Below, one piece after another: positions 19,837 to 47,427 of a stretch of 64,000 nt of DNA (position 1 is the first letter of the stretch; every line of letters begins with the position of its first letter). The DNA lies in assembly GCA_965226885.1 (NCBI GenBank), contig CBDDEL010000014.1:570248-634247 (forward strand). The letters run 5' to 3'. The position numbers were made by a program, and so were the translations under genes. The stretch comes from Opitutales bacterium (lineage in GTDB: Bacteria > Verrucomicrobiota > Verrucomicrobiia > Opitutales > UBA2987). The notes below the pieces were generated by a model. The model saw only the letters and a list, made by a program, of their open reading frames with translations. It had not been told where the DNA came from and ran no database searches.

Positions 19837-20973
19837 TCAATAGCAACTTCTTATGACAGCAACCACGCGTTTCAGTTGTTCAAGGGTTAAGGCAGAACCC
19901 GATGGAAGGCAAAGGCCGGTGTGAAACAACTTTTCCGCAACTTCTCCTCCAACTTTTTCGCAATTGGAATAAAGCGGCTGCAAATGTAGAGGCTTCCATA
20001 CAGGTCGGCATTCTATGTTCTCCTCCTCCAGGTGCAATCGAATTTTATTTGGCGATATCCCAGATAATTCTTCATTAACCGTAATGCAGGATAACCACCG
20101 GGTGCCCTTGCCATATTCTGCTTCAGGCATAAAATCAATTCCCGGCAAATCGCATAACGCCGCTTGATAATAATCAAATACTTTTCTCCGGGCCGAAATA
20201 AAATCAGCCAGTTTCACCAATTGCCCCCGCCCAATTGCAGCCAGAACATTGCTCATACGGTAGTTATAACCTTGTTCGGAATGTTGGTAATGGACAGCCG
20301 GATCACGCGCTTGTGTCGACAAAAAAAGCGCCTTATCAGCCACGGCCTTATCTTTGCAAATGATCATGCCGCCGCTGCTGGTCGTCATAATTTTGTTACC
20401 GTTAAACGAGAATACTCCAAACGGCGAGGAAACACCGGCGCTGCGTTCTTTATAGGTTGCCCCAAGAGCTTCCGCGGCATCTTCGATAACGATCAGATCA
20501 TAACGAGCGCAAATTTCTTGGATAGAATCGAGATCCGCGCACTGACCGTAAAGATGGACCACATTTACCGCTTTTGGCAGCCGATTGGATGCGGCTCGCC
20601 GGCCAAGCCAATCCTCTAATAAGTTTGGGTCCATATTCCAGGATTGAAAGTCACTGTCTATAAATATCGGTTTGGCGCCAATATAGCGAATCGGATTTGC
20701 GGAGGCTACAAACGTTAATGTGGAACACAAAACCTCATCCTCTGCCCGAACTCCGGCTAATACGAGGGCGAGGTGCAAAGCGGATGTTCCGGAGTTCAGG
20801 GCAACGGCGTGGTCTGCGCCGGTACATTGGCAAAACTCCTGTTCAAAGGCTTTCAACTGCGGTCCCGCTGGCGCTATCCAGTTCGATTCAAAAGCATCTT
20901 TCACCATTAGCCACTCTTCCATCCCTATATCTGGAGGTGAAAGATAAATGCGTTCTTTATTCAGATTTGTCAT
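19837..20973 (-). CDS. pglE: DegT/DnrJ-family sugar aminotransferase (PglE-like)
   Basis: IYLSPP, WIAP.G, EDAAEALG, SFNGNKI.TTS.GG. Confidence 0.88.
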   Translation of the reverse strand: MTNLNKERIYLSPPDIGMEEWLMVKDAFESNWIAPAGPQLKAFEQEFCQCTGADHAVALNSGTSALHLALVLAGVRAEDEVLCSTLTFVASANPIRYIGAKPIFIDSDFQSWNMDPNLLEDWLGRRAASNRLPKAVNVVHLYGQCADLDSIQEICARYDLIVIEDAAEALGATYKERSAGVSSPFGVFSFNGNKIMTTSSGGMIICKDKAVADKALFLSTQARDPAVHYQHSEQGYNYRMSNVLAAIGRGQLVKLADFISARRKVFDYYQAALCDLPGIDFMPEAEYGKGTRWLSCITVNEELSGISPNKIRLHLEEENIECRPVWKPLHLQPLYSNCEKVGGEVAEKLFHTGLCLPSGSALTLEQLKRVVAVIRSCY

Positions 20974-21009
20974 TCTCCATTAGAAAAGTTTCCACAAATT
21001 CAGGGATCC

Positions 21010-22457
21010 TCATGTTTGAGTTACCGGTCTCGCCGGAATACCCAACACAGTAGTGTCCGAAGGAACATCATGAGTAACAACACAACCGGCTCCCAAAACG
21101 GCATTATCGCCTACTCGGCAACCCGGAAGGACGGAGGCATGGCTGCCCACAAATACTCCCTGCCCCAATTGCGGGTAGTGTATAAAAAAGAATGTCATTT
21201 TGTATTTTTAGCTGTACAAATAGCGCTAGGCAGTTTATTCTTAGTGCATGGTTACTAAAATTATTAATTGTCGGCACTGTGGAAGTGAAAATATCATTAA
21301 ATTTGGCAAGACGCCCAACCATAAACAGCGCTACCGCTGCCATGATTGTGGTAAACAAAGCCGCGAAAACCCCACAGTGAAATACACCGAAGAGCAAAAA
21401 GAAATGATCCTTCGAGTCTATCAGGAACGCAGCAGTCTACGCGGTTTACAGCGCGCCTTCGGGGTGAGTCCCAACACCGTTTTGAGTTGGTTAAAAAAAA
21501 CGACAATCGCTGCGACCGCTCAAAAGCACGATTCTTGCGGCCCGCCGCCATGATGTCATTGAACTGGACGAACTGTGGTCTTTTGTGGGGCGCAAGAGCG
21601 ATGCCCAATGGGTTTGGATCGCTCTTTGCCGACGCACCCGTCAAATCCTCTCCTATGCCATTGGGCCTCGGGATTGGTATCGTTGCCGGGAACTTTACGA
21701 GCGTCTGCCACGGGCCTACAAAAGATGTGCCACCTACAGCGACTTTTGGAGCACTTATGATGAAGTCTTTCCTCATAACCGATCCGTGGGAAAAGAAACC
21801 GGTGAAACGGCCCATGTGGAACGATGGAACAATACCCTGCGCCAACGACTGGGTCGTTTCACACGCAAAACCCTCTCCTTTTCCAAGCTTAAGAGTATGC
21901 ATGAAACCTGTCTGAGACTTTTCATTCATCAATATAATCAAGAATTAGCCACCATTCCTACTTAATACACTACCCAATTGCGCATGTCCCGAAATATCGC
22001 AAAAACAGCTAAATTGGCAAAAATCTCCAATTACAACAATATGATTTAAACAGTAAATTAGATTAATTCTTACATAATTACCGATTATCAGGTCAATCGT
22101 TAGTATAGCCCTAGGGCATATAACATTTCCATCTCCCATTGTGATGTTGTGCCCCAAAATAGCCGTTGGATGTATAATATTCACAAATCTACCACCTCGG
22201 CTTAGCATTTTCTTTACACATTTCCTTTTAATTGAAGGGATGCCAATAGCGCATACAAACACATCAGCTGACTCAGGTTGATAATTTTCAATAGTATCTA
22301 TTATGCCAATCGTAAGAGTATATCCTCGCAATGCATCCAGGTTATCATCCAGAAACCCTTTAATAACCCATTTATTATTATGTTCCGGGCACTGACTAGC
22401 CCAAGTATAAACTTTTCGCCCAAAATCTCCCGCGCCAATAATAATTAATTTTTTCAC
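21010..22457 (-). pseudogene. pglD: PglD/NeuD-family sugar acetyltransferase interrupted by IS1
   Basis: IIGAG, hexapeptide repeats; ...ISGHAQLG resumes as QGVFVGSHAS...GIPARP* beyond the IS. Confidence 0.85.
21174..21974 (+). mobile_element. IS1-family element (insA 21248-21553, insB to 21965 via -1 frameshift)
   Basis: GGTAGTG...CACTACC ends; 8-bp TSD CAATTGCG; A8C slippery site near 21493. Confidence 0.93.
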
Positions 22458-22460
22458 GTG

Positions 22461-23090
22461 CTATTTGAGATCATAACGGGTATTGGATTCATTTCCCATA
22501 AACTCTTGTGTTGTCGCGTGTCCTTCTTGCGTTATGCCTTCACATTTAAATGTTTTCACCACAGTTAATATAAGAATTTTCAAGTCGAGCATAATACTTC
22601 TGTTATCCACATACCAAACATCCAACCTGAATTTATCTTCCCATAAAATTGCATTCCGTCCATTGACCTGTGCCCAGCCGGTTATGCCAGGTCGTACCTC
22701 GTGCCGCCGAGCTTGTTCGGGGCTGTAACGTTTGAGGTAGCGCATTAATAACGGCCTTGGTCCTACAAGGCTCATATCACCCCGTAACACATTAATCAGT
22801 TCAGGCAGTTCATCTAAACTCGTGCTGCGCAAAATGGTACCAAATTTTGTAAGGCGTTCCTTATCCGCCAAAAGTTCTCCCTCATTATTATAAATATTTA
22901 GCATGGATCTGAATTTTAACAACGTAAATTTCCGACCGTCCAACCCAGGTCTGTCATGTCGAAATATCACTGGCGTTCCAAGCTTTATTCTTATCAATAG
23001 AACAATTATCAAAAAAACCGGTATAAACATAATCAACAAAATGGTTGAAGCTAGAATATCGATGCCTCTCCTCATTTTACATAGATTCAA
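22461..23090 (-). CDS. pglC: Phosphoglycosyltransferase (PglC-like sugar transferase)
   Basis: KFRSM, SLDELP, MSLVGPRP, RPGITGWAQVNGRN. Confidence 0.92.
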   Translation of the reverse strand: MNLCKMRRGIDILASTILLIMFIPVFLIIVLLIRIKLGTPVIFRHDRPGLDGRKFTLLKFRSMLNIYNNEGELLADKERLTKFGTILRSTSLDELPELINVLRGDMSLVGPRPLLMRYLKRYSPEQARRHEVRPGITGWAQVNGRNAILWEDKFRLDVWYVDNRSIMLDLKILILTVVKTFKCEGITQEGHATTQEFMGNESNTRYDLK

Positions 23091-24264
23091 CCAATGGAAG
23101 ACAATTCTTCAGAAATACTTCCTTGCAGTAATTCTTTTTCACAAAGTCATATCCGTTTTTAATAATATATTTATATGCCACCGGATTTTCTAACGCGTCA
23201 ATAATCATTCTCGAAAATTCTTTGGATTCATTGCCGCACAAAAAATGTTTTCCGGGAATTCCCTCAATACCTTGAATTCCAACTCTTGTTGAAACAAGCA
23301 ATTTTCCCCATGCCATTGCAATCAAACTTTTTATTTTAATGCCAGACCCACTATCTTGTGTATTTAAAAAAATAAATCCATTTTCCAATATAGGTTTCAC
23401 ATCTGATATATATCCTAATCCCCTTATACCAATCGATGTGTTATTAAAAGATTCTGTATTTTGTCCACCAAGTATTAACAATGCATGAGGTATCTTCGAT
23501 TTAATTCTTGGCCAGTCCTGCTCGATAAATTTACGCAATCCGCCTTCCTTTCGATAATCGATAGTAACAAGACTAATTATTGTGTAGAAATCTACTTTTG
23601 ATATGTTGTGTTCTTCGGGAATATCGACATATACCCCAAACACGCCATTTGAATCCACTCCAAGGTTCTTCTTATAAATATTGGCATCTCTTGCTGTAAT
23701 TGACCAAACCAAGTCTGCCATATTTAAAGTTCTCAATTCAAAATACTTTACTTTAGCCACTTCTATAGTCCACGCAATGCGTATCAATAAATTACCCTGT
23801 TTACTGAAATTTGAAAAAGCCTCAAAAAGCACGTCGTGACTTCTAACTACTGTTTTTATACGATGATTTCCTTTTTTTAAGTATTTTTGAAAAATTGCAA
23901 TTGGGATGCCTTCAAATATCACAACTGGCATTACTCCATACTTAGATTTATATTCTTCAATTACTTCCGAAAGCGCATAATAAAGGGATTTGTCCCTGAA
24001 TTGCTGCACACAGGCTGGTAAAGAGCTTAACAAACTTGAAATGAATCTTCTTAATAAACTGTGGCGTTTTATAGAAAGATGTCTAAATTCAATATTAGGA
24101 AATATGTTCTTTATATTTTCAACTAATTCCGATTCTGTTACACCTACATAACAAATGTTTAAATATTTCTGCCTCATAGCTGCAATCGTAGAACTTGTAG
24201 CTATGCCATATCCAGAATTGTTATCCGGCCAACCATGAGCAACAATTATCACAGATTTAGACAA
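23077..24264 (-). CDS. GT4-type glycosyltransferase
   Basis: GSGIKIK...AMAWGK..VST..G..G C-terminal GT-B motif. Confidence 0.75.
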   Translation of the reverse strand: MSKSVIIVAHGWPDNNSGYGIATSSTIAAMRQKYLNICYVGVTESELVENIKNIFPNIEFRHLSIKRHSLLRRFISSLLSSLPACVQQFRDKSLYYALSEVIEEYKSKYGVMPVVIFEGIPIAIFQKYLKKGNHRIKTVVRSHDVLFEAFSNFSKQGNLLIRIAWTIEVAKVKYFELRTLNMADLVWSITARDANIYKKNLGVDSNGVFGVYVDIPEEHNISKVDFYTIISLVTIDYRKEGGLRKFIEQDWPRIKSKIPHALLILGGQNTESFNNTSIGIRGLGYISDVKPILENGFIFLNTQDSGSGIKIKSLIAMAWGKLLVSTRVGIQGIEGIPGKHFLCGNESKEFSRMIIDALENPVAYKYIIKNGYDFVKKNYCKEVFLKNCLPLVESM

Positions 24265-24266
24265 TT

Positions 24267-25097
24267 TTATAGATTCCCAACAGATATTTTTTTTAATTTA
24301 ATTTTTATTAATTTATAGCGGGATTCACTCTTCCGTGGTATAAATACGATATTTTGACCACATTTTTCATCAAACAGTTTTTTTTTTATCGAAAAATCAG
24401 ATAATATGTACCCATCATAATTTCTTTTATACATAAACGAAAATATATCCTTCACGTCATAACCGTATCGATGTCCGTGACCGATTTCGAGTATAATAAT
24501 GCAATTGTTTTTTTCTATAATTTTCTTTGCACCTCGCAATACGTGCATTTCATAACCCTCAACATCACATTTCAATAGACTTGTCTCTAATAATTTTGGA
24601 TGTACATGAATTAAATCGTCCAATTTTTTTAAAATGACCATAATTTTATTTGAGACTATTCCATCGCCAGAATATGCTAAATGACTCAAACCCCTGAATC
24701 GACGACCGATGGAATCACAGACATTTAGGTAATGTTGTTCCTCCTTATCGGATAGGCCGTATTCAAAAATAATTGTGTTTTTTAAGGATAACAGCTTAAT
24801 TGTTTTTTTTGTTACCTTTGCATAATAAGGGTCGATTTCAAAAGCGTAAACTTGTCCTTCCAGGCCAACGGCTTTTGAAAGATGGTATGTCCAATTTGCT
24901 CCATTGGCACCTGCATCAACAGCTACTTCCCCCTTCATCAAACATAGAGATATTATATTCATTTCCGGTTCACGGTTTTTACCCTTCTTTATCAAATAAA
25001 CAAATCGGAGGGCATGAATCCATTCCAGTCCCCCTTCACCGAATAAGGCTTTAAGAATCGTTACAATTAACGACTTCATTAATTTTTCTCCACCCAA
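24267..25097 (-). CDS. FkbM-family methyltransferase
   Basis: VDAGANG, VYAFE, KCDVEGYE..VL.GA. Confidence 0.88.
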   Translation of the reverse strand: MGGEKLMKSLIVTILKALFGEGGLEWIHALRFVYLIKKGKNREPEMNIISLCLMKGEVAVDAGANGANWTYHLSKAVGLEGQVYAFEIDPYYAKVTKKTIKLLSLKNTIIFEYGLSDKEEQHYLNVCDSIGRRFRGLSHLAYSGDGIVSNKIMVILKKLDDLIHVHPKLLETSLLKCDVEGYEMHVLRGAKKIIEKNNCIIILEIGHGHRYGYDVKDIFSFMYKRNYDGYILSDFSIKKKLFDEKCGQNIVFIPRKSESRYKLIKIKLKKISVGNL

Positions 25098-26212
25098 TTC
25101 ACAGGCACATTACCAGTTAAAGTTTCGTAAAGTTTTTCTGGAGTGTTCTGAATTAGATATTTTTTTATAACTGAATTATTTGTTATATTTGTTTTAATAT
25201 ATAACAACTCACTTAATTTTTTCCTGAAGTCCAATTCACTTTCCGCCGAAAATGTTTTTCCTGCAGAAAGTCTCATTACTCTTTTTCCAAGAATCCCCCA
25301 ATTTGTAGCCAAAACTGGCACCCCGTTATAAATTGAGTCGACGAAAATACCACTGCTTCCACCAAAGTATATATATGGCAAAATCACAGCTGAGGCATTC
25401 GAGTATAAATAATACATTTCTTGCTCTGACAATTTCCAATCCATTAATATTACTTTCACTGGATAAACAAATTTTTCACATAGCATTTTAATTTCAGGTG
25501 ATTTTTCGATTGAACCACCTATAAATACTCTCAATGGAGTGTCCCATTTCAGTAATGCACGAAGTGCCCAAGAAGTACCTTTATGTGGTAAATGATATCC
25601 CATAAATACTATTGTTGGTAATTTACTTTCCTCTTGTACATACTTGGATGTAATCTCATTAGTACGTCTTTTGAAGGGGTCTGGACACCACTCTACTTGA
25701 TTGCTAATCAAATGAATGTTTTTAAAATATTTTACTATATCTTCGTTCACAAAGTATATTTTTGTATTCTTAAAACATATTAAAAACATTATTATAAAGC
25801 CTGATACCAGTAATTTTTTGACCCAATCAATTAAAAAATATTTTCTAGGATAAAAGAAGCTGCCACCAAACCAAATCCCTTCGATATTAGGAATTTTCTG
25901 AAATAATAATCCTTTTTCTATAAAAAACATTATATTTGAATATAACAAATAATCAAAGTGAAGATGAAGGCATTCTGTAACTTGTTTATTATAATTCAAT
26001 AATTTGATTATTTTTTCAAGCTCCTCTTTTGCTAGTGGCATTTTTTTGAATGGAATATACACTGTAGCTTTGCAATTTTCTTTTACACAGTTTGATACTT
26101 CATTCCATAAGGATTGAGAGGTCAACAAAATGCCATCAAATCCACTTCTTATCATTATTTCGACATAATTGGGATGGTGACCGGTCGGATTAAAATCAAC
26201 AATCAATTTCAT
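25079..26212 (-). CDS. GT4-type glycosyltransferase
   Basis: N-terminal GHH, HKG, ILPY...SSG...GVPVLAT. Confidence 0.75.
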   Translation of the reverse strand: MKLIVDFNPTGHHPNYVEIMIRSGFDGILLTSQSLWNEVSNCVKENCKATVYIPFKKMPLAKEELEKIIKLLNYNKQVTECLHLHFDYLLYSNIMFFIEKGLLFQKIPNIEGIWFGGSFFYPRKYFLIDWVKKLLVSGFIIMFLICFKNTKIYFVNEDIVKYFKNIHLISNQVEWCPDPFKRRTNEITSKYVQEESKLPTIVFMGYHLPHKGTSWALRALLKWDTPLRVFIGGSIEKSPEIKMLCEKFVYPVKVILMDWKLSEQEMYYLYSNASAVILPYIYFGGSSGIFVDSIYNGVPVLATNWGILGKRVMRLSAGKTFSAESELDFRKKLSELLYIKTNITNNSVIKKYLIQNTPEKLYETLTGNVPVNWVEKN

Positions 26213-26219
26213 TATCTGC

Positions 26220-27173
26220 TCAATCCACTTTCCTTATTAACCCGCGTATAATTGATTTTAATATAATTTTAAAATTATACATTTTATCGTCACTCGCTTC
26301 GAATATAGCTCCAATACACTCTTTAATCCCCTTTAGATCCAAATTAGCCACTTTAAATCCGAGCAAGTAACCGATAACTCCAACGTGATATTTTCGCATC
26401 CTATGCTCTCCTCTGTCATCGCCGTACCAATCAATAAATACAGGAAGCCACTTTTTAACAAATCGATTAACCCCATCGAGTCTAGAGCGGATATCATTCA
26501 TCATGGTAAATCGATTTAATCGGCTGTAGGATATAACTAATGGCTCCTCTACCACTACACATCTAAAGCCCTTGAGCGCAACTGCCATCCATATATCGTG
26601 ATCTATTCCTGAAGTCAATGACTCATCGAATCCACCAGCTTGAAGAAGAGCTTGTCTGGAAAACATTGACGAAGATGAAATTGTTTGAATGCCTTCCTTG
26701 ATAATAGCTTCCTTGAGAATACCATTGTTGGCAGCCCTTAACAATTTTGGAGATCGACGGCTTCCCGGAAATCGTGTTTCCAGGCTTGAATGGATTACGC
26801 CAAAATCTCTTTTTTTGTCCTCTCCCAGTTCGATTATCTTATCTATAAGGATTTCAATTCTATTTTTTTTCCACTCATCATCATCATCTAAAAAAGAAAT
26901 ATATTTTCCTTTGGCCAGGTGCAAAGCCACATTTCGAACAAATGGTAAACCGTGGTTTTCTTTAAGGCGCTTGTAAAATATATTGGATAGGTTATTTTGT
27001 GAAAACCACTTTTCAATACCACTTGTAGAACCATCTTCTACAACAATTATTTCGAGTTTTTCATATGATTGCCCATTAACGCTTAATATAGCTCTTTTTG
27101 CTTCCCAAAGTCTGTCATAGGTTGTCACAACAGCAGTGACTAGTGGCTTTGTATTTTTTAAATTCTTCGTCAT
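26220..27173 (-). CDS. GT2-family glycosyltransferase
   Basis: VVTTYDR, VEDGS, FLDDDDEW, GGFDE. Confidence 0.9.
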   Translation of the reverse strand: MTKNLKNTKPLVTAVVTTYDRLWEAKRAILSVNGQSYEKLEIIVVEDGSTSGIEKWFSQNNLSNIFYKRLKENHGLPFVRNVALHLAKGKYISFLDDDDEWKKNRIEILIDKIIELGEDKKRDFGVIHSSLETRFPGSRRSPKLLRAANNGILKEAIIKEGIQTISSSSMFSRQALLQAGGFDESLTSGIDHDIWMAVALKGFRCVVVEEPLVISYSRLNRFTMMNDIRSRLDGVNRFVKKWLPVFIDWYGDDRGEHRMRKYHVGVIGYLLGFKVANLDLKGIKECIGAIFEASDDKMYNFKIILKSIIRGLIRKVD

Positions 27174-27368
27174 TTATAGTTATTTTTAAGGGTAATATTA
27201 TGCAATATTATCCATATTACCGCAGTAGATGAGGATTATGGTTCGATAGTTTTGGAAGTTTCGTAAGCTTTACGCATTGGCTATTCTAATCTGAATTTTT
27301 ACGTTTGAACCTATGATTGCAAAATATTTGATATGCAGTTAATGGTGAGTTATGATCCGCTCCTACAA

Positions 27369-28793
27369 TTATCTGTAAATGCTTTTTATGGAGGGTATTA
27401 TCGATTTATCTATTTTAATTATAGCCAAACCATAAATTATGAATGCCGTTAATATTATCAACAAGAAAACTATCCAATTTCCGGGAGTGATTTTAATCAA
27501 CAAAGAAACTGCCAAAGCCATGATTGAAACCGGAAGAATCGTTTTGCCAAATCCATGAATCCATTCGAAATAACCGCCCACCCGTTTATGGACAAAATAA
27601 AGACTGATTGGAAGAATGAGTAAAGAGGAAATTGCGGAAACAGCGGCAATACCAACTAAACCGGCCAAATTGTATCCAAAATAAAGCAGAGCACCAATTG
27701 ACATTGCCCTAACAGACTCCAAGACCAAAATTGGCTTTGGTTTTCCAGTGGCTTTAAAAAAGGCACCTCCCAACCCGGCAACACTTCTAAATAACCCTCC
27801 TATTACCAACAGGGAAAGGGGCAACGCAACCGACTCCCATTTATCCCCTAAAATGAGGGGAGTAAACTTAGGTGAGAGGAGAGCTACCCCGATGGCAGAA
27901 GGCGCGACAAGAAGGATAGAATAGCGAAGGGTAAGACTGAATGCCTGCCGCAATTTCACGGAATCGTTTTGCAGTTTTGCATAAGCCGGTTGCGTGACTC
28001 TGCCGACGACCTTGACGAATTCTGTGGTCGGAAGGTTTGCCAGGTAAACCGCCATGAAATAAATACCTAAAGTTTCTGTATCAAGGAAATGTCCGATAAA
28101 TATTTTATCCAGATTGAGAGCCAGGTAACTGACAATACCAGCGAGGAAAAGCCATACTCCATAATTCCAAAGGAATGCTGCTTTTCCCAATCTAAATTCA
28201 AATCTTGGACGGTATGGATGGAATAAAAACGAGGTAATTGTCGCCACCAGTTCACCTGCGAATAAACCGTAAACCATTCCCAAAACGTTTTTAAAATAAA
28301 AAGATAAGGTTATAGTGGCAATGAAAGTAACACCGACAAATATAAGATTGAAATAGGATTCCTTTTTAAAATTCAAATCTCGCTGAAGAAGGATAATACC
28401 GATGCTCCGGAAACCGCGAACAAATTGAGTTAGAGCCATGAATTGAGCAACTTTGACAACAGCAGGCTCATGAAATATTTTTCCCATTAATGGAGCCAAA
28501 AGCAGGCATAAAATTGCCAATATTATACCTCGATATACCTGAATCCAATAGCTTGTGTGGAGGAAACTTTCCAAGTCATCTCGAATATGAATCAAGGCAT
28601 CTTCAAATCCAGTTCTAGTGAACACCTCGAATGCCAGAATCATGATTGAAGCAAGTGCGAACAGTCCGAATTCTTCAGGGGCGAGCAGACGCGCCAGAAT
28701 TAAAGTGCGCAATAAGGCCAGACTCCTCTGAATTACTTGCAGACTGAGAACCCAAAAGCTGCCTTTAATAATTTTATGCGAAAGTTCTTTCAT
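27369..28793 (-). CDS. wzx: Wzx-type polysaccharide flippase
   Basis: ILARLL.PEEFG, many TMs, LG.KW; start taken at MKELSHK. Confidence 0.85.
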   Translation of the reverse strand: MKELSHKIIKGSFWVLSLQVIQRSLALLRTLILARLLAPEEFGLFALASIMILAFEVFTRTGFEDALIHIRDDLESFLHTSYWIQVYRGIILAILCLLLAPLMGKIFHEPAVVKVAQFMALTQFVRGFRSIGIILLQRDLNFKKESYFNLIFVGVTFIATITLSFYFKNVLGMVYGLFAGELVATITSFLFHPYRPRFEFRLGKAAFLWNYGVWLFLAGIVSYLALNLDKIFIGHFLDTETLGIYFMAVYLANLPTTEFVKVVGRVTQPAYAKLQNDSVKLRQAFSLTLRYSILLVAPSAIGVALLSPKFTPLILGDKWESVALPLSLLVIGGLFRSVAGLGGAFFKATGKPKPILVLESVRAMSIGALLYFGYNLAGLVGIAAVSAISSLLILPISLYFVHKRVGGYFEWIHGFGKTILPVSIMALAVSLLIKITPGNWIVFLLIILTAFIIYGLAIIKIDKSIIPSIKSIYR

Positions 28794-28818
28794 TAATGAA
28801 GGTGAAATTACAACTAAA

Positions 28819-29940
28819 TCACGATTCACCATAAAAATCGGCAATTAACGACACCACATACTCTTGCTGGTCTATGGTGAGTTCAGGGTAAATCGGAAGA
28901 GCCAGTGTTTCCTTTGCGGCTTTTTCGCTATGGGGAAAATCACCTTCGGCATAACCCAAAAAGGAAAAGCATTTTTGCAGGTGAAGAGGCACAGGGTAAT
29001 AAACCTCATGGCCAATCTCTTTTTTTCTCAAAAATTCGCACAACTGATCACGCCGGTCAGATTTTATGATGTATTGATTATAAACATGGCGTGAGGTTTT
29101 ATCGACAGGTGTTTTAATCAATTCCCGATTTATTAAGCCCGATTCTTTAAAAAGGCGGTTGTAGCGTTGGGCATTGATCTGACGAGCCATAGTCCAGCTA
29201 TCTAGATAGGATAGTTTCACGGTTATGACTGCCGCCTGTAAAGCATCTAAACGGAAATTTCCACCCACCTGGTCATGATAGTATTTTTGTTGCGACCCGT
29301 GATTACGTAATGATGCCATAATATCAGCTTTCTCCCGATCATTGGTTACAACCATTCCAGCGTCTCCGGCAGCCCCCAGGTTTTTAGATGGGAAAAATGA
29401 GAAACATCCATAACTTCCAAAGGTTCCAGCCCTCTTTCCATTATTTTCGGCTCCGATAGCCTGAGCGGCATCTTCTATTATAGTCAAATCATGTATTTTG
29501 GCCAAGGAAACTATGGGATCCATATCGGCCAATTGACCAAATAAGTGAACTGGTATAATTGCTTTTGTTTTTTTCGTTATTTTTTCCGTTATGGCGGAAG
29601 AATCTATAGTGTATGTACCAGGGTCGATATCAACAAAAACGGGTCGCGCCCCCAACCGGACAATTGAACCGACGGAAGCAAAAAAAGAGAAGGGAGTGGT
29701 AATTACCTCGTTGCCCTTGCTTATGTTCTCGGCCATCAGACTGATGATGAGGGCATCCGTCCCGGAGGAAACGCCGACTGCAAATTGGCAATCAGAATAA
29801 GCTGCCACGGCTTTTTCGCATTCAGTTACCTTGTCACCATTAATGAACATTTGTGAGGAAAAAATTTCGGCGACAACGGAATCGATCTCCGTTTTAATAG
29901 AATGGTATTGCGCTTTTAGGTCGAGCAGGGGAACTTTCAT
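28819..29940 (-). CDS. DegT/DnrJ-family aminotransferase (WbpE-like)
   Basis: VPLLDLKAQY, SSGTDAL, EDAAQAIGA, SFFPSKNLG. Confidence 0.9.
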   Translation of the reverse strand: MKVPLLDLKAQYHSIKTEIDSVVAEIFSSQMFINGDKVTECEKAVAAYSDCQFAVGVSSGTDALIISLMAENISKGNEVITTPFSFFASVGSIVRLGARPVFVDIDPGTYTIDSSAITEKITKKTKAIIPVHLFGQLADMDPIVSLAKIHDLTIIEDAAQAIGAENNGKRAGTFGSYGCFSFFPSKNLGAAGDAGMVVTNDREKADIMASLRNHGSQQKYYHDQVGGNFRLDALQAAVITVKLSYLDSWTMARQINAQRYNRLFKESGLINRELIKTPVDKTSRHVYNQYIIKSDRRDQLCEFLRKKEIGHEVYYPVPLHLQKCFSFLGYAEGDFPHSEKAAKETLALPIYPELTIDQQEYVVSLIADFYGES

Positions 29941-30036
29941 AAAAATAATGGGATTATAATTTTCTATCCTATGAAGGGATTGGTATTAGATGTTCTCTGA
30001 AGCCGAAATGATGGCGGGAAGCCAGCTTCTATTTTC

Positions 30037-43291: not shown

Positions 43292-44851
43292 ATGGCCTTA
43301 ACGCCTTTTTGCAGTAAATTAATAGCCGATGTCGGCATCAGCATGGGAGACGAGGGTAAAGGCCGCCTGGTCTGTGAACTGGTAAACGAAATAAACCATA
43401 ACGCGGACGCGGCAAAGGGTTCCCGAGTCGGAATGGTCATTAAGGTCAACGGCGGAGCCAATTCCGGTCATACTGCGGGAGGACTGAAATTCAACCTGCT
43501 GCCCTGCGGTGTGGTCACCCGTGAGGTTCCCTGCCTGGCCATCGGTTCAGGAGTGGTGGCCGACCCGTTCAAGTTCTGGTGGGAAATCAAGCCACTGGAA
43601 CGTCTGGGCTACAAAGTATTCGACCGCCTGCTTATCGACGAGCACACCATGGTCAGCGACTTGAGCCATCGCCTGCTCGACCTGGCATGGGAATATTACC
43701 GGGCCAACATATTGAAAGAATCGCCCCGCGGTTCAACCGGGCGCGGCATAACACCGGCCTATTGCGATGAGGTCGGTCAATGGCAGATTATCTATGCGGA
43801 TTTTTTAGGTAAAAAAGAGGATTTCGCCAATAAACTGAGGCAGCGCATGGACCGGGCGCTACGCACCATCTACTACGTCTGCCGGGTGGATGAAGAGGCT
43901 TGGGACAGCTTCTTTGAAACCCTCACCGTGGCGGAAGCCAGAGCCAACGCACAAGCCATCAAAGAGGGCATATTCCCCGCCCAGGAATTTAATTTCGAGC
44001 GTTTCAAGGCTCCCTCCCCCGATTATCTGAATTTTGAGGCGGTTATCGATGCCTATTGGGAGGCGGGCTCGGCGCTGGCCCCAGTAATTGGCGATGTCAG
44101 GGAAGCCGTGCTGCGGAATATGGCAAAGGGCAATTTTGTGATCGGTGAATTCGGCCAGTCCTACTGGCTGGACAAGCGCCACGGTTTTTCTCCCAACGTG
44201 ACCGCTTCCCACACCTACGTGCCGGAGTTTTTCCAATCGGCCGGAGTGCCGGCACAACCCATTCATACTGTCGGAGCCAGCAAAGCCTATGACACCAAAG
44301 TAGGCACACATGATTTCATTACACAACTGAATGATGAGCATCCCCTGGCCGGGAAACTAAAAAAACTGGAGTTCGGCGCCACGACCGGCCGACAGCGCAT
44401 GGTCGGGTGGTTCGATGCAGTGGAAAAGGGCGATGCCCTTCGTTTTGGCGGTTTCCAGGATTTGATCGTAAATAAACTGGACGCTTTGACTTACTCCGAT
44501 TCCTGGCAAGGAGGCGAACTGCTCATTTGCGTGGCTTATCAGTCACCCAATGGGACAAAATACCAACAGGTTCCACGAGACCAGGCCCTGCGGCGAACGC
44601 TGCGACCGGTTTTCCAGCAATACCCCGGATGGAGGGAGGATATTTCCAAAGTTCGCAGTTTTGACGCTTTACCGATAAACGCCAAACGCTATGTGGCCGG
44701 CATGGTCAAGGGAATATTGGATGTGGCCTATCGTGACGGCCATCGACCAAAGATACTGCCCAATCTGCGTTATATCGGAGTCGGTCCGGAACCCGCCCAG
44801 ATAATCGATGACGTGCCAGAAACGGAAAAATTGATTAGCTTACTGGAATAA
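43292..44851 (+). CDS. purA: Adenylosuccinate synthetase
   Basis: [41 protein letters not shown]. Confidence 0.95.
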
Positions 44852-44897
44852 ATTTAATTTTTCGGCCAACCAGCCGATATTTTAATATTGTACAGAC

Positions 44898-44929
44898 AAA
44901 AGGCCCGGTCTCCTTACGGAGGCCGGGCC
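44898..44929 (-). terminator. Intrinsic terminator for a minus-strand transcript
   Basis: Minus strand GGCCCGG-C-CTCC-GTAA-GGAG-A-CCGGGCC-TTTT. Confidence 0.75.
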
Positions 44930-45813
44930 CCTTGAAAGTTTGGAATGTCGTTCGCCACACGCTCTTTCCAAGTGCTGGCATTGGGCGCTTTCGATTGCTC
45001 GGAAGCTGCCAGCTCCCCGACGCTATTCCACGCGGCAACACGCGATTGTCGGTCTCATAGCAGGACCGTCGCCCCAATTGCTCCGGACGATTCTCAAGTG
45101 AGGCCTCTCGGCAGGGTTCGACCCGTGTCTGCCGACACCGGTGCGCCCTACTTGGAGCAAAACGCCCTGCAATAGGCTTTCTGCTCCTTCTGCCCGAGGG
45201 TCGGCCCGCAGATGGCTCCGCGGCGTTGGCCCCCGGTTACGGGTCTGACCTCTTAGCTCTCAGGATACTTTTCGCATTGCAGAGCGGTCGATGCGGTTTT
45301 TCACACCGCCCGCACTTTTTCGGAATTCACCAGGCTCAGCTTGCACTGATCCTCGTGCTCTCCCCGCCTCAAGGTGGCTTTTTCGTGCCTCCGGCGCTTG
45401 GCTTTCGGAGGCCTTGCGGCGAGTTTGCCCTCGCCAGTTCACCTTGATCGGACTGGTCTTCATGGTAGCATCCACGGCCCGTTGCCCGGGTCACCTTGTC
45501 GTCCTTCCTGATGATGCAAGCATCCTCAAAACGAACTCACTCAGCTCGCCGCTGGAACCATTATTACAGCGGCTCACTGCCGCGTTCCGCATTTCGTCAG
45601 GGCGCGAACCCCGGCGGCGGAACGGGTGGAATATGCCTCTTTCCCCATCGGCGAATCTCCCGAAAGAGTTCCTGTGATGGTTCCGAAGGAGTCAGGCCCA
45701 CCAGTTCTGGCCCGACTTTTGCCCGGTTTCTCAACCGGGAGTATCTTGAGACTCTCCACCGCCTTGGTCCGAAAACCCCGGCGGCGAATTGCCATATTTC
45801 TTCCAAAGAACTG
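44898..45813 (-). ncRNA. Candidate giant structured ncRNA (~0.9 kb; GOLLD-sized, family unverified)
   Basis: No credible ORF; dense GC-rich hairpins with GNRA/UUCG loops on the minus strand; promoter and terminator bracket it. Confidence 0.7.
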
Positions 45814-45819
45814 CCCATA

Positions 45820-45847
45820 AGATTGGACAGAAAAAAAGACTTGTCAA
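45820..45847 (-). promoter_or_regulatory. Sigma70-like promoter TTGACA-16-CAATCT
   Basis: Perfect -35 at 45847-45842 with AT-rich upstream DNA; -10 is imperfect. Confidence 0.55.
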
Positions 45848-46134
45848 ATAAAAAGTGTCCTAAAACACTGCAAAAGAACAAGTTGTGAATAAGTCGACTT
45901 TTCCATGTGAGCGTTTTGCGAACAACTGCGCATCCCTCCCAAACAGAGTCATTTAGAATTGAGGACAATCGCCCACCCCCTATCGTGAATAACGCTTTAA
46001 ACTTACCATCGCAAAAAAAGTTTAAGTTTTTTTTATTTTTTTTCAGAAAAATTGAGAATATTCGCGAAACTTTGCCTTCTACAAAAAAGATCCGCATTTA
46101 AGGTAATGCGATTTCGAAGAATGAGACTTCAGTT

Positions 46135-47427
46135 TCATTGCAGAAGGTGTTCCCGGACGGGGATTTCGTGGTAGATGCTCTCCATGATTTCACCGATTAG
46201 ATAAAGCGAACCGGTGGCGACGAGGGTTTCGCCGCCTTCGCCTTCGGAGCAGTAACCGGGAAAGGGGAAAAGGGATTCTACTTTCGATTTGCGCACACGG
46301 CCGGGGAATTCGCCGGGGATGGCTTCGCGCAGCATTTTGAAGGTGGCGGCGCGGGGCTGCATGGGCTTGAGGAGTATGATTTCACGGGCGTAACGGGCAA
46401 TGACCGGCATGATGGCTTGAGCCCTTTCCGGACCGAGCACGCCAACCATAATGGTGGGTTTACGGCCGGTCTTCATGACCAGATCCTCTAAATTTCCAGC
46501 CAGCAACTCAGCGCCTTCCCGGTTGTGAGTGGTGTCGAGAATAACGGTCTTTGCCCCGACCGCATGCGCGTCCCAACGGCCGGGCCAATATACCTCTCGC
46601 ATGGCTCCCAGAGCGATTTCGCTATCCAGGGTAAAACTCGACTGGAGCGCTTGCCCGGTGAGCAGAGCAGTGGCGGCATTGCGCCGCTGGTAATCGCCGT
46701 GGAGATTAGTTAGAGGATAGTCAAGTGAAGTATTGCCGAATTGCTCGGCGATTGAGTGAACAGGCGCGTTTCTTTGGGAGGCTATCTCGCGAATGGTATT
46801 TTCCGCCTCTTTTGGCAGGCAACCCAATACAACCGGCCGACCTTCTTTGATAATGCCGGCTTTCTCCCGGGCTATGGCAGGAAGATCATCTCCTAATAGT
46901 TCGGTATGATCCAGGCTTATAGAAGTTATGACTGAAATCTCGGGCCGGACAATGTTGGTGGCGTCGAGCCGTCCGCCCAAACCTGTTTCGATGATTCCAA
47001 TATCGACGGCTTCCTCGGCAAATCGCATAAAGGCCATAGCGGTCATGAATTCGAAGAAGGAGGGATGGTCGGCGGCGTTTCTTGCCGCCAGTTTGTCGGC
47101 TATAGATTTGAGTTGGAGGGTGTATTTTACAATGGAATCGGGGTCGAGAATTTTGCGGTTTACCTGGATACGCTCCCCCTGGAAAACGAGGTGGGGCGAA
47201 GTGAAGAGTCCCGTTTTATAGCCGTTGAGCCGAAAAATCGCTTCGAGCATGGCGCAGGTAGAGCCTTTGCCGTTTGTTCCGGCAACATGGATGACAGGAA
47301 ATCGGCGCTCAGGGTGGCCGATCTTTTCCCCCAGCAGCCTCATACGGTCGATGCCGTATTTGGCTCCGTGGTGTTTCAGGCTATAGAGATAAGCTTTGGC
47401 TTCTTCGTAATTTCGGATAAGAGGCAT
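46135..47427 (-). CDS. folC: Folylpolyglutamate synthase / dihydrofolate synthase
   Basis: HVAGTNGKGS, FTSPHL, ETGLGGRLDATN, AREKAGI, WPGR. Confidence 0.95.
   Translation of the reverse strand: MPLIRNYEEAKAYLYSLKHHGAKYGIDRMRLLGEKIGHPERRFPVIHVAGTNGKGSTCAMLEAIFRLNGYKTGLFTSPHLVFQGERIQVNRKILDPDSIVKYTLQLKSIADKLAARNAADHPSFFEFMTAMAFMRFAEEAVDIGIIETGLGGRLDATNIVRPEISVITSISLDHTELLGDDLPAIAREKAGIIKEGRPVVLGCLPKEAENTIREIASQRNAPVHSIAEQFGNTSLDYPLTNLHGDYQRRNAATALLTGQALQSSFTLDSEIALGAMREVYWPGRWDAHAVGAKTVILDTTHNREGAELLAGNLEDLVMKTGRKPTIMVGVLGPERAQAIMPVIARYAREIILLKPMQPRAATFKMLREAIPGEFPGRVRKSKVESLFPFPGYCSEGEGGETLVATGSLYLIGEIMESIYHEIPVREHLLQ

Follow-up and report, generated by a model that had tools for sequence, protein, structure and literature searches.

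A MISL RNA gene in an Opitutales genome, with a boxA-like word at its predicted start, DnaA-box-like 9-mers upstream and a near-identical second copy

The MISL RNA (family RF03079 of Rfam) is an orphan among the largest noncoding RNAs (ncRNAs) of bacteria. Its range according to Rfam is the Verrucomicrobiota, and the family is said to come from the supplement of Weinberg et al. 2017. In the main text of that paper (PMC5737381) the word "MISL" occurs 0 times, and the literature searched on "MISL RNA" holds experimental use only as a chemical-mapping example. GOLLD, ROOL and OLE are similar in kind, being large and ornately folded RNAs with a transcription unit of their own and a function that is little understood; GOLLD and ROOL form homo-oligomers, according to the part consulted of the source (10.1101/2024.12.08.627333). 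Here we analyse a MISL gene on the minus strand of a 64,000-nucleotide stretch (the window; contig CBDDEL010000014.1, positions 570,248 to 634,247) of the genome of an Opitutales bacterium, where it lies between purA and folC. The RNA matters as an orphan and not as a new class, and three features around its gene provide concrete handles on it: a boxA-like word in the leader, a cluster of DnaA-box-like 9-mers upstream and a second, homogenised copy. The best overall explanation of the locus, in which we have considerable confidence, is that of a MISL gene most likely yielding a stable housekeeping RNA, with a synthesis that we infer to be of the ribosomal RNA operon (rrn) style and a promoter possibly linked to DnaA.

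Other described systems bear on these surroundings. Among promoters regulated by DnaA boxes, whose classical consensus is TTATNCACA, are those of dnaA and nrd in Escherichia coli; MISL likewise has 9-mers fitting TTATNCACA upstream, often two of them ~100-120 nt apart, but its target is an ncRNA gene and the link to DnaA is a putative one. BoxA also occurs at transcripts other than rRNA, namely in the leaders of suhB and of CRISPR arrays, the latter reportedly the subject of boxA work by Stringer et al. 2020; the CRISPR transcript is, like MISL, long and untranslated. In contrast, the boxA of suhB promotes Rho termination instead of preventing it (cf. Baniulyte et al., in the part consulted). 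The role of boxA set out in the accessible portions of PMC12360218, PMC3177189 and PMC5725501 is to serve an antitermination and folding complex nucleated by NusB and S10, and the Nus-modified polymerase resists Rho on untranslated RNA and aids folding (PMC12360218). With the rrn leader MISL shares a boxA word followed by a hairpin, in its case with a predicted promoter-proximal place in a long, untranslated and structured transcript. However, the MISL word would open the predicted RNA directly and comes with an extra GAAC arm, while rrn promoters are without DnaA-like boxes.

Searching the window with Infernal cmscan and Rfam 15 gave a match of RF03079 to 44947-45746 on the minus strand, which covers the complete model (positions 1-751 of 751) in an RNA body of 800 nt; it scores 367.5 bits, well over the gathering score of 274.6, at an E-value of 1.6e-109. 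It is the sole Rfam match across the 64-kb window. Under permissive filters the match held and no second family appeared at E<=1 within 44700-46150, where the covariance models of GOLLD, ROOL, OLE, HEARO, RNase P, tmRNA and introns found no match at that threshold. The interval 44896-45847 on the minus strand is one of two gene copies for MISL RNA, an already catalogued family, and of this we are practically certain. A sequence-only reading of this stretch had placed here a highly structured minus-strand ncRNA of ~0.9 kb, among housekeeping genes and with its own promoter region and terminator. The Rfam match, the fold and the covariation described below bear that out, and the promoter and terminator elements are both present; the same strong match that confirms the RNA takes away its novelty.

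Protein-coding potential is lacking in the 916-nt unit by several measures: each of the six frames holds 3-11 stops, the longest open stretch reaches 142 codons, the three longest overlapping open reading frames (ORFs; 166, 130 and 128 aa) belong to 0 Pfam families, and a conserved reading frame was not seen across the MISL unit. The G+C content is 60.1% in the RNA body, 49.6% in the window and 36.3% directly upstream of the RNA. Both observations agree with the earlier description of GC-rich DNA devoid of a credible ORF, and its choice of the minus strand was sound as well, given a fold of -354.5 kcal/mol (z = -7.2) that 0 of 20 shuffles equal, against z = -1.9 on the plus strand, equalled by 1 of 20. 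All eight hairpins that it had listed lie on the minus strand where it had placed them, with the loops GAGA, UUCG (two) and GCAA (three). In a MAFFT alignment of 22 homologues, 86.2% of the cells of a 193-pair consensus can pair, compared with 70.5% in shuffles, and pairing falls to 36-43% when the partners are slid. Compensatory changes affect 132 of the 193 pairs versus 94 +/- 4 in shuffles, and none of five covariation measures was reached by any of 500 shuffles. RNAalifold predicted 122 pairs from the same homologues, 92 of them with compensatory double changes. Covariation thus supports a conserved MISL fold, and the RNA body shows the same consensus helices as the family and no differences from it. 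What lies outside the Rfam model is a leader of ~65 nt with the boxA-like word, the upstream box cluster and the presence of two copies that evolve in concert.

Two natural variants touch on the architecture of the RNA (G numbers below denote genomes, G000 being the one that holds the window and G002, G004 and so on related ones; L numbers denote MISL loci). Genome G008 has two copies (L015 and L019) of a 5'-truncated form in which approximately the first 190 model positions are missing, one of them abutting the 3' end of folC and having no promoter of its own; this suggests that the 3' two-thirds of MISL represent a core domain. In the congener G004, both copies (L010 and L018) share a 24-nt deletion equivalent to 45738-45761 of the window. 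It takes out the 5' strand of the first Rfam hairpin, which therefore seems dispensable.

MISL matches are found in 16 of 41 related genomes (G000 included), 11 of these above the cut-off, and in 9 of 151 genomes of an even sample of the phylum, scored under stricter filters and with only four candidates per genome. The partial matches are of two kinds, that of G002 being cut by a contig end and those of G008 being the genuine 5'-truncated variant. A pattern scan of public genome contigs returned at least 118 stretches, mostly chance matches in other phyla, of which we kept the 41 loci that match an nhmmer profile of the homologue alignment; 24 of these have the full 5' end and at least 260 nt upstream. 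Among the matches listed, 27 of the 28 titled loci out of the 41 come from Verrucomicrobiota lineages, and the records of homologues include Verrucomicrobiota, Opitutales, Opitutaceae, Verrucomicrobiales and Limisphaerales. The remaining titled locus, L095, is a full-length MISL locus with the same promoter grammar in a bin labelled Bifidobacteriaceae; a mis-binned Verrucomicrobial contig is more likely here than a true occurrence. MISL is a large, intricately folded, trans-acting ncRNA of Verrucomicrobiota.

Upstream of the RNA body, the minus strand carries a perfect TTGACA (45842-45847), as had been noted before, and a -10-like hexamer AATCTT (45819-45824) predicted 17 nt after it. The arrangement recurs in related genomes. 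Twenty-three loci lined up on the Rfam start disclose a common grammar, consisting of the 9-mer TTATTCACA, 36 nt, TTGACA, 17 nt, a weak -10, 7-8 nt, GTTC[T/C/A]TTG, a hairpin and the body. TTGAC[A/T/C] is conserved in the loci outside the f22-like clade, and the geometry of -35, 17 nt and -10 (NANNNT) was read in 12 homologous promoters. From this geometry, transcription is predicted to start near 45811-45813, at the purine just before GUUCUUUG and in agreement with the earlier proposal of 45813, and to yield a primary transcript of ~916 nt. Downstream, also as proposed, a hairpin and U-tract at 44929-44896 form an intrinsic terminator, with a 12-bp G+C-rich stem interrupted by one C.A mismatch, a GUAA loop and then UUUUGU. 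A consensus scan missed it owing to the stem mismatch; homologues with enough trailer have a hairpin plus U-tract 15-25 nt past the Rfam end. We also looked for a helix between leader and trailer such as that of pre-16S rRNA. No conserved counterpart was found in MISL: RNAduplex gave no conserved pairing, and the A/U-rich trailer is a 5' extension of the terminator stem.

RNA libraries contain part of the locus. Thirteen runs labelled RNA contain 28-51% of the sampled words of 44600-46300, and contigs of four studies cover the RNA body, from 44907 or 44953 to 45750-45763, one contig of 865 nt spanning 44907-45762. Strand, ends and level cannot be read from such contigs, and their depth cannot rank genes. 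The promoter, the leader beyond 45763 and the flanks are without contig cover (purA reaches 3.6 in one run), which is not evidence of silence. In all four studies the contigs stop, with no loose ends, at 45750-45763 and so ~50 nt short of the predicted start, which is at most a weak hint of processing of the 5' leader, or may reflect nothing but strain divergence.

The first bases of the predicted transcript consist of a boxA-like word, GTTCTTTGGAAGAAA (45797-45811, minus strand), that matches the organism's own rrn boxA. The MISL word GTTCTTTGGAAG resembles those of the single rrn operon of the same genome, which has GTTCTTTGAAAT 128 nt before 16S and GTTCTTTGAAAG before 23S, and many MISL loci carry GTTCTTTGAAAG itself. 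In four relatives the rrn operon shows G[T/C]TCTTTGAAA at -120 to -138 of 16S and a similar word again in the spacer. GTTC[T/C/A]TTG is present in 22 of the 23 MISL loci, the exception being the truncated G008 variant, and in 24 of 24 further loci from public genomes (among the matches listed); it follows the -10 by 7-8 nt in the 12 promoters whose geometry was read. Exact GTTCTTTG[AG]AA words number nine in the 5.48-Mb genome, with ~4 expected from base composition. Five of them fall inside ORFs of 272-820 codons, and the other four, in non-coding DNA, comprise two in the rrn operon and one in each MISL leader. The 5' half of the word is nearly invariant and the 3' half variable, as one would expect where a protein recognises a single strand. 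At 10 of 11 positions the word agrees with the consensus GYTCTTTAANA of gamma-proteobacteria, as given in the portion consulted of PMC5725501; the one deviation, a G at position 8, is shared by the Aquifex boxA of the NusB-NusE-RNA structure (PMC3177189, likewise consulted in part). The genome encodes NusB (contig C12, 299000-299374; 112 bits) and a Rho RNA-binding domain (C12, 349894-350112; 51.8 bits). Between the boxA-like word and the Rfam start lies a leader hairpin (45759-45784, minus strand) and, in 15 loci of the f22-like clade, 7 of the 21 predicted pairs of this hairpin have compensatory changes, indicating that the leader acts as RNA and that transcription would begin at or before the boxA-like word. 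On this basis we lean slightly towards a MISL gene transcribed by an rrn-type, Nus-modified polymerase. If so, the Nus machinery of rRNA would extend to an orphan ncRNA.

Further upstream, the 9-mer TTATTCACA (45884-45892, minus strand) matches TTATNCACA exactly and ends 36 nt before the -35 hexamer, and a distal one, TTATTCACG (45984-45992, minus strand), agrees with it at 8 of 9 positions. The distance from box to -35 is 36 nt in 10 homologous loci read, 37 in two and 26 in one, and a second box ~100-120 nt upstream of the first also occurs in L005, L006, L007 and L011. Exact TTATNCACA lies within 400 nt upstream, always on the sense strand, in 15 of 23 loci. For a broader count we used 43 non-redundant loci, leaving out second copies, the G008 variant, a partial match and one near-duplicate. 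Among the matches listed, the 250 nt that precede the start (10.75 kb in all) contain the relaxed word TT[AG]TNCAC 116 times, with at least one instance in 43 of the 43 loci. The control regions have 1 in the RNA bodies (33.4 kb), 1 downstream (10.1 kb) and 0 further upstream (10.75 kb), and the genome-wide frequency is 0.206 per kb. The exact word TTATNCACA is found 32 times upstream, in 23 of the 43 loci, and is absent from all three control regions. In 5 of 5 genomes the relaxed word is missing from the 1500 nt ahead of 16S. The box cluster is real and specific to MISL, and its fixed spacing, its presence in every locus examined and its absence from rrn promoters suggest that MISL is linked to the control of replication. 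A promoter tied to the replication cycle by DnaA as the binder is a tentative identification that falls just short of an even chance and draws on the fit to the classical consensus.

We further considered the upstream boxes and the adjoining A+T-rich stretch as a replication origin and rejected the idea: there is no turn of the GC skew at the locus, the block is present twice and it has only 2 boxes. Elsewhere in the genome, the stretch 39458-39748 of contig C15 has two perfect TTATCCACA 19 nt apart (39729/39748) and a third relaxed box within 300 nt; it belongs to the three clusters of relaxed boxes that the genome contains and is a candidate DnaA site or origin. One-strand arrays of DnaA-box-like 9-mers with an exact 99-bp period occupy C14, 151270-151666, and C16, 787510-787906; these could represent a 33-codon protein repeat or an iteron-like array. 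Across five relatives the exact word does not as a rule outnumber its reversed control, with the exception of G019 (58 vs 20), and in G032 the three boxes before MISL make up the densest group among its 50.

The gene exists in two copies. The second, also full-length and above the gathering score, lies on another contig (C16, RNA at 905072-905871) between a lexA-type gene and a sodium:solute symporter. By blastn, the duplicated block measures 1173 nt at 99.4% identity. Within 44889-46042, which takes in the upstream boxes, promoter, RNA and terminator, the copies differ by one substitution (44916) and one 1-nt indel (46012), and the RNA bodies are identical at 800 of 800 positions. The sole substitution turns the terminator loop GUAA into GCAA, both of them GNRA. 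In the window its boundaries are marked by the terminator-like hairpins of purA (44862-44877, plus strand) and folC (46092-46111, minus strand), both of which lie just outside the block; the repeated unit thus comprises the upstream region, promoter, RNA and terminator. The congener G004 likewise has two copies, one between purA and folC and one beside the symporter (tblastn), and we consider both loci orthologous between the two genomes on the evidence of these neighbours. Nevertheless, copies from one genome agree at 98-100% and copies from different genomes at 91-93%: of the variable columns, 71 are the same within and different between genomes, 0 follow the locus and 15 show other patterns. 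The MISL copies thus evolve in concert by gene conversion, as in rRNA operons, and the maintenance of two homogenised copies argues for selection on dosage. In G029, G020, G034 and G002, too, matches located at the ends of contigs are a hint of repeats left unresolved.

Several observations weigh against a boxA at the start of MISL and DnaA upstream of it. The boxA-like word doubles as the left arm of a palindrome, GTTC-N7-GAAC, that most loci retain, including all 15 f22-like leaders. In rrn of the same genomes, by contrast, the boxA words are not followed by GAAC, so that the MISL element could be an operator or form a 5' hairpin. Nor do the variants at position 5 (T, C or A) follow the rrn boxA of their own genome: none was seen to track it, G032 having GTTCATTG in MISL but GTTCTTTG in rrn and G097 GTTCCTTG in MISL but GCTCTTTG and GTTCTTTG in rrn, and an A at this position is undocumented in the portions of the boxA literature examined. 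The truncated G008 variant, moreover, is without the boxA word, TTGACA and upstream boxes; a sigma-70 consensus scan called 0 promoters, the -10 AATCTT being weak; and the start, the strand of the RNA and the putative binding of Nus factors or DnaA are predictions from the DNA and its homologues. The palindrome might be an operator over +1 to which a repressor binds as a dimer, or fold into a small hairpin at the 5' end of the RNA with a role in stabilising or marking the transcript, the likeness to rrn boxA being incidental or secondary. We judge this alternative rather unlikely, if still to be reckoned with. The 3' arm is lost in this window (GAAA) and in L004, L005, L008 and L026, compensatory changes are absent from every pair of the putative stem, and L013, L016, L026 and the f22 clade have inner pairs that no longer match; the near-invariance of the 5' eight bases is an asymmetry that neither a symmetric operator nor a stem would lead one to expect, and an identity of 11-12 nt with a boxA from rrn of the same order has by our estimate a chance of ~1e-5 (a 12-mer in a 70-nt leader). 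The case of the upstream boxes is closer. Instead of DnaA, TT[A/G]TNCAC could serve another regulator, for instance an activator or repressor dedicated to MISL, or belong to an extended promoter, an alternative to which we give somewhat less than an even chance. The rigid 36 nt to the -35 is as for a class-I activator site, and the boxes are accompanied by the conserved words A[C/A]TTGTTC and TTTTATG. In G000 no matching cluster was found beside dnaA or marking oriC, only three clusters of at least three relaxed boxes exist genome-wide and none is an evident oriC. MISL uses TTATTCACA, with T at the variable position, whereas the commonest exact box of the genome, TTATCCACA (50 of 82), has C, and the window by itself has 3 exact boxes vs 1.5 expected, which is not significant. 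In favour of DnaA speak the exact fit to TTATNCACA in 23 of the 43 loci and the fact that other clades show TTATCCACA and both orientations, as DnaA boxes do.

Alternatives that concern the gene as a whole fare less well. A block duplicated with sharp borders at 99.4% identity brings to mind a mobile element or its RNA, like the HEARO or omega RNAs of insertion sequence (IS) elements, particularly in a genome rich in IS elements, where an IstB-like IS helper gene numbers ~70 copies; one G004 copy has a DDE transposase as its neighbour, and L024 an IS200-like gene. Yet neither G000 copy has a transposase or terminal repeats in or beside it, eight genomes from four families share the order folC-MISL(-purA), most of the positive related genomes (13 of 16) have a single match, and the orthology of the G000 and G004 loci means copies that are old and homogenised, not freshly transposed. 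We therefore hold a mobile element very improbable. Still more so is a cis-acting element that serves folC or purA as a leader or as part of the 3' untranslated region (UTR), or a protein gene in decay, even though MISL lies directly downstream of folC on the same strand and a G008 copy adjoins folC without a promoter: between folC and MISL lie a terminator-like hairpin belonging to folC (46111-46092) and then an A+T-rich promoter region of 300 nt, the second copy has other neighbours, and stops in all frames go with the lack of a Pfam match. A conserved protein partner beside the gene was rejected too, since the neighbours differ by clade, with a DEAD/DEAH helicase at 7 loci, a cysK-type PALP enzyme at 7 and four different tRNA synthetases at 4 others. 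Finally, the sequence-only reading had favoured a GOLLD-like or new giant ncRNA class, and a size of ~0.9 kb, many GNRA and UUCG loops and the gene's own promoter and terminator would suit such a class or a relative of GOLLD, ROOL or OLE. Because an existing Rfam family is matched over its full length, however, the RNA is neither a new class nor GOLLD-like. MISL has no match to GOLLD, ROOL and OLE in sequence or structure at E<=1, differs from them in phylum and lacks a phage or tRNA neighbourhood, no such surroundings being seen beside either copy, as had been noted for this one; we consider this alternative extremely improbable.

Taking MISL as a housekeeping gene made in the manner of rRNA, its synthesis may be envisaged as follows. 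A sigma-70-type promoter (TTGACA, 17 nt, AATCTT) would start transcription near 45811-45813, so that the first bases of the RNA are the boxA word, with a core identical to that of the cell's own rRNA operon. This word would recruit NusB and S10 and build an rrn-type antitermination and chaperone complex, able to carry RNA polymerase through ~0.9 kb of untranslated RNA without Rho termination and to help folding. The structured leader hairpin would emerge next, then the 800-nt body, up to the intrinsic terminator near 44896, while the DnaA-box-like 9-mers at their fixed distance might tie the promoter to DnaA and the replication cycle. The mature MISL is most likely a stable housekeeping RNA acting through its tertiary fold, as a scaffold of a ribonucleoprotein or as a catalytic or assembly RNA, whose dosage would matter; the boxA word, the box cluster and the homogenised copies favour a housekeeping role over one in a mobile element or in phage defence. 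In a more speculative and rather unlikely extension, MISL would be a third kind of rRNA-like stable RNA in Verrucomicrobiota, a large housekeeping ribonucleoprotein or self-assembling RNA that is dependent on boxA and Nus factors, gated by DnaA, made in step with replication and kept in copies by gene conversion. The leader boxA-like word, the box cluster and the two-copy state were not found in the literature searched on MISL, although the supplement of Weinberg et al. may already touch on the promoters of the family. What may be new here is the anatomy around the gene, that is the rrn-type boxA, the DnaA-like cluster common to all loci and two copies kept identical by gene conversion.

As to its neighbours, the gene does lie between purA (PF00709; 43292-44851, plus strand) and a folC-type Mur ligase (46135-47427, minus strand), beyond which are accD and a menC/menE-like fusion. 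All four flanking genes are long intact frames with Pfam domains, at variance with the former view of an otherwise eroding region. The purA frame is 519 aa long, and its Pfam match falls into two stretches, the best of which starts only at profile position 168; the actual start may be further in, or the protein may contain an insertion. Elsewhere in the genome, ~70 near-identical frames of 270 aa (e.g., on C10, C14 and C16) have a weak match to DnaA/IstB-type AAA proteins and most likely encode the helper ATPase of a massively expanded IS21-family element. Within the window, a low-G+C island at 20000-30000 (34-42% vs about 50-53% around it) holds a minus-strand operon for a surface polysaccharide, comprising two DegT-type aminotransferases, a PglD-like acetyltransferase, an initiating sugar transferase, four glycosyltransferases/methyltransferases and a flippase, and was probably acquired horizontally.

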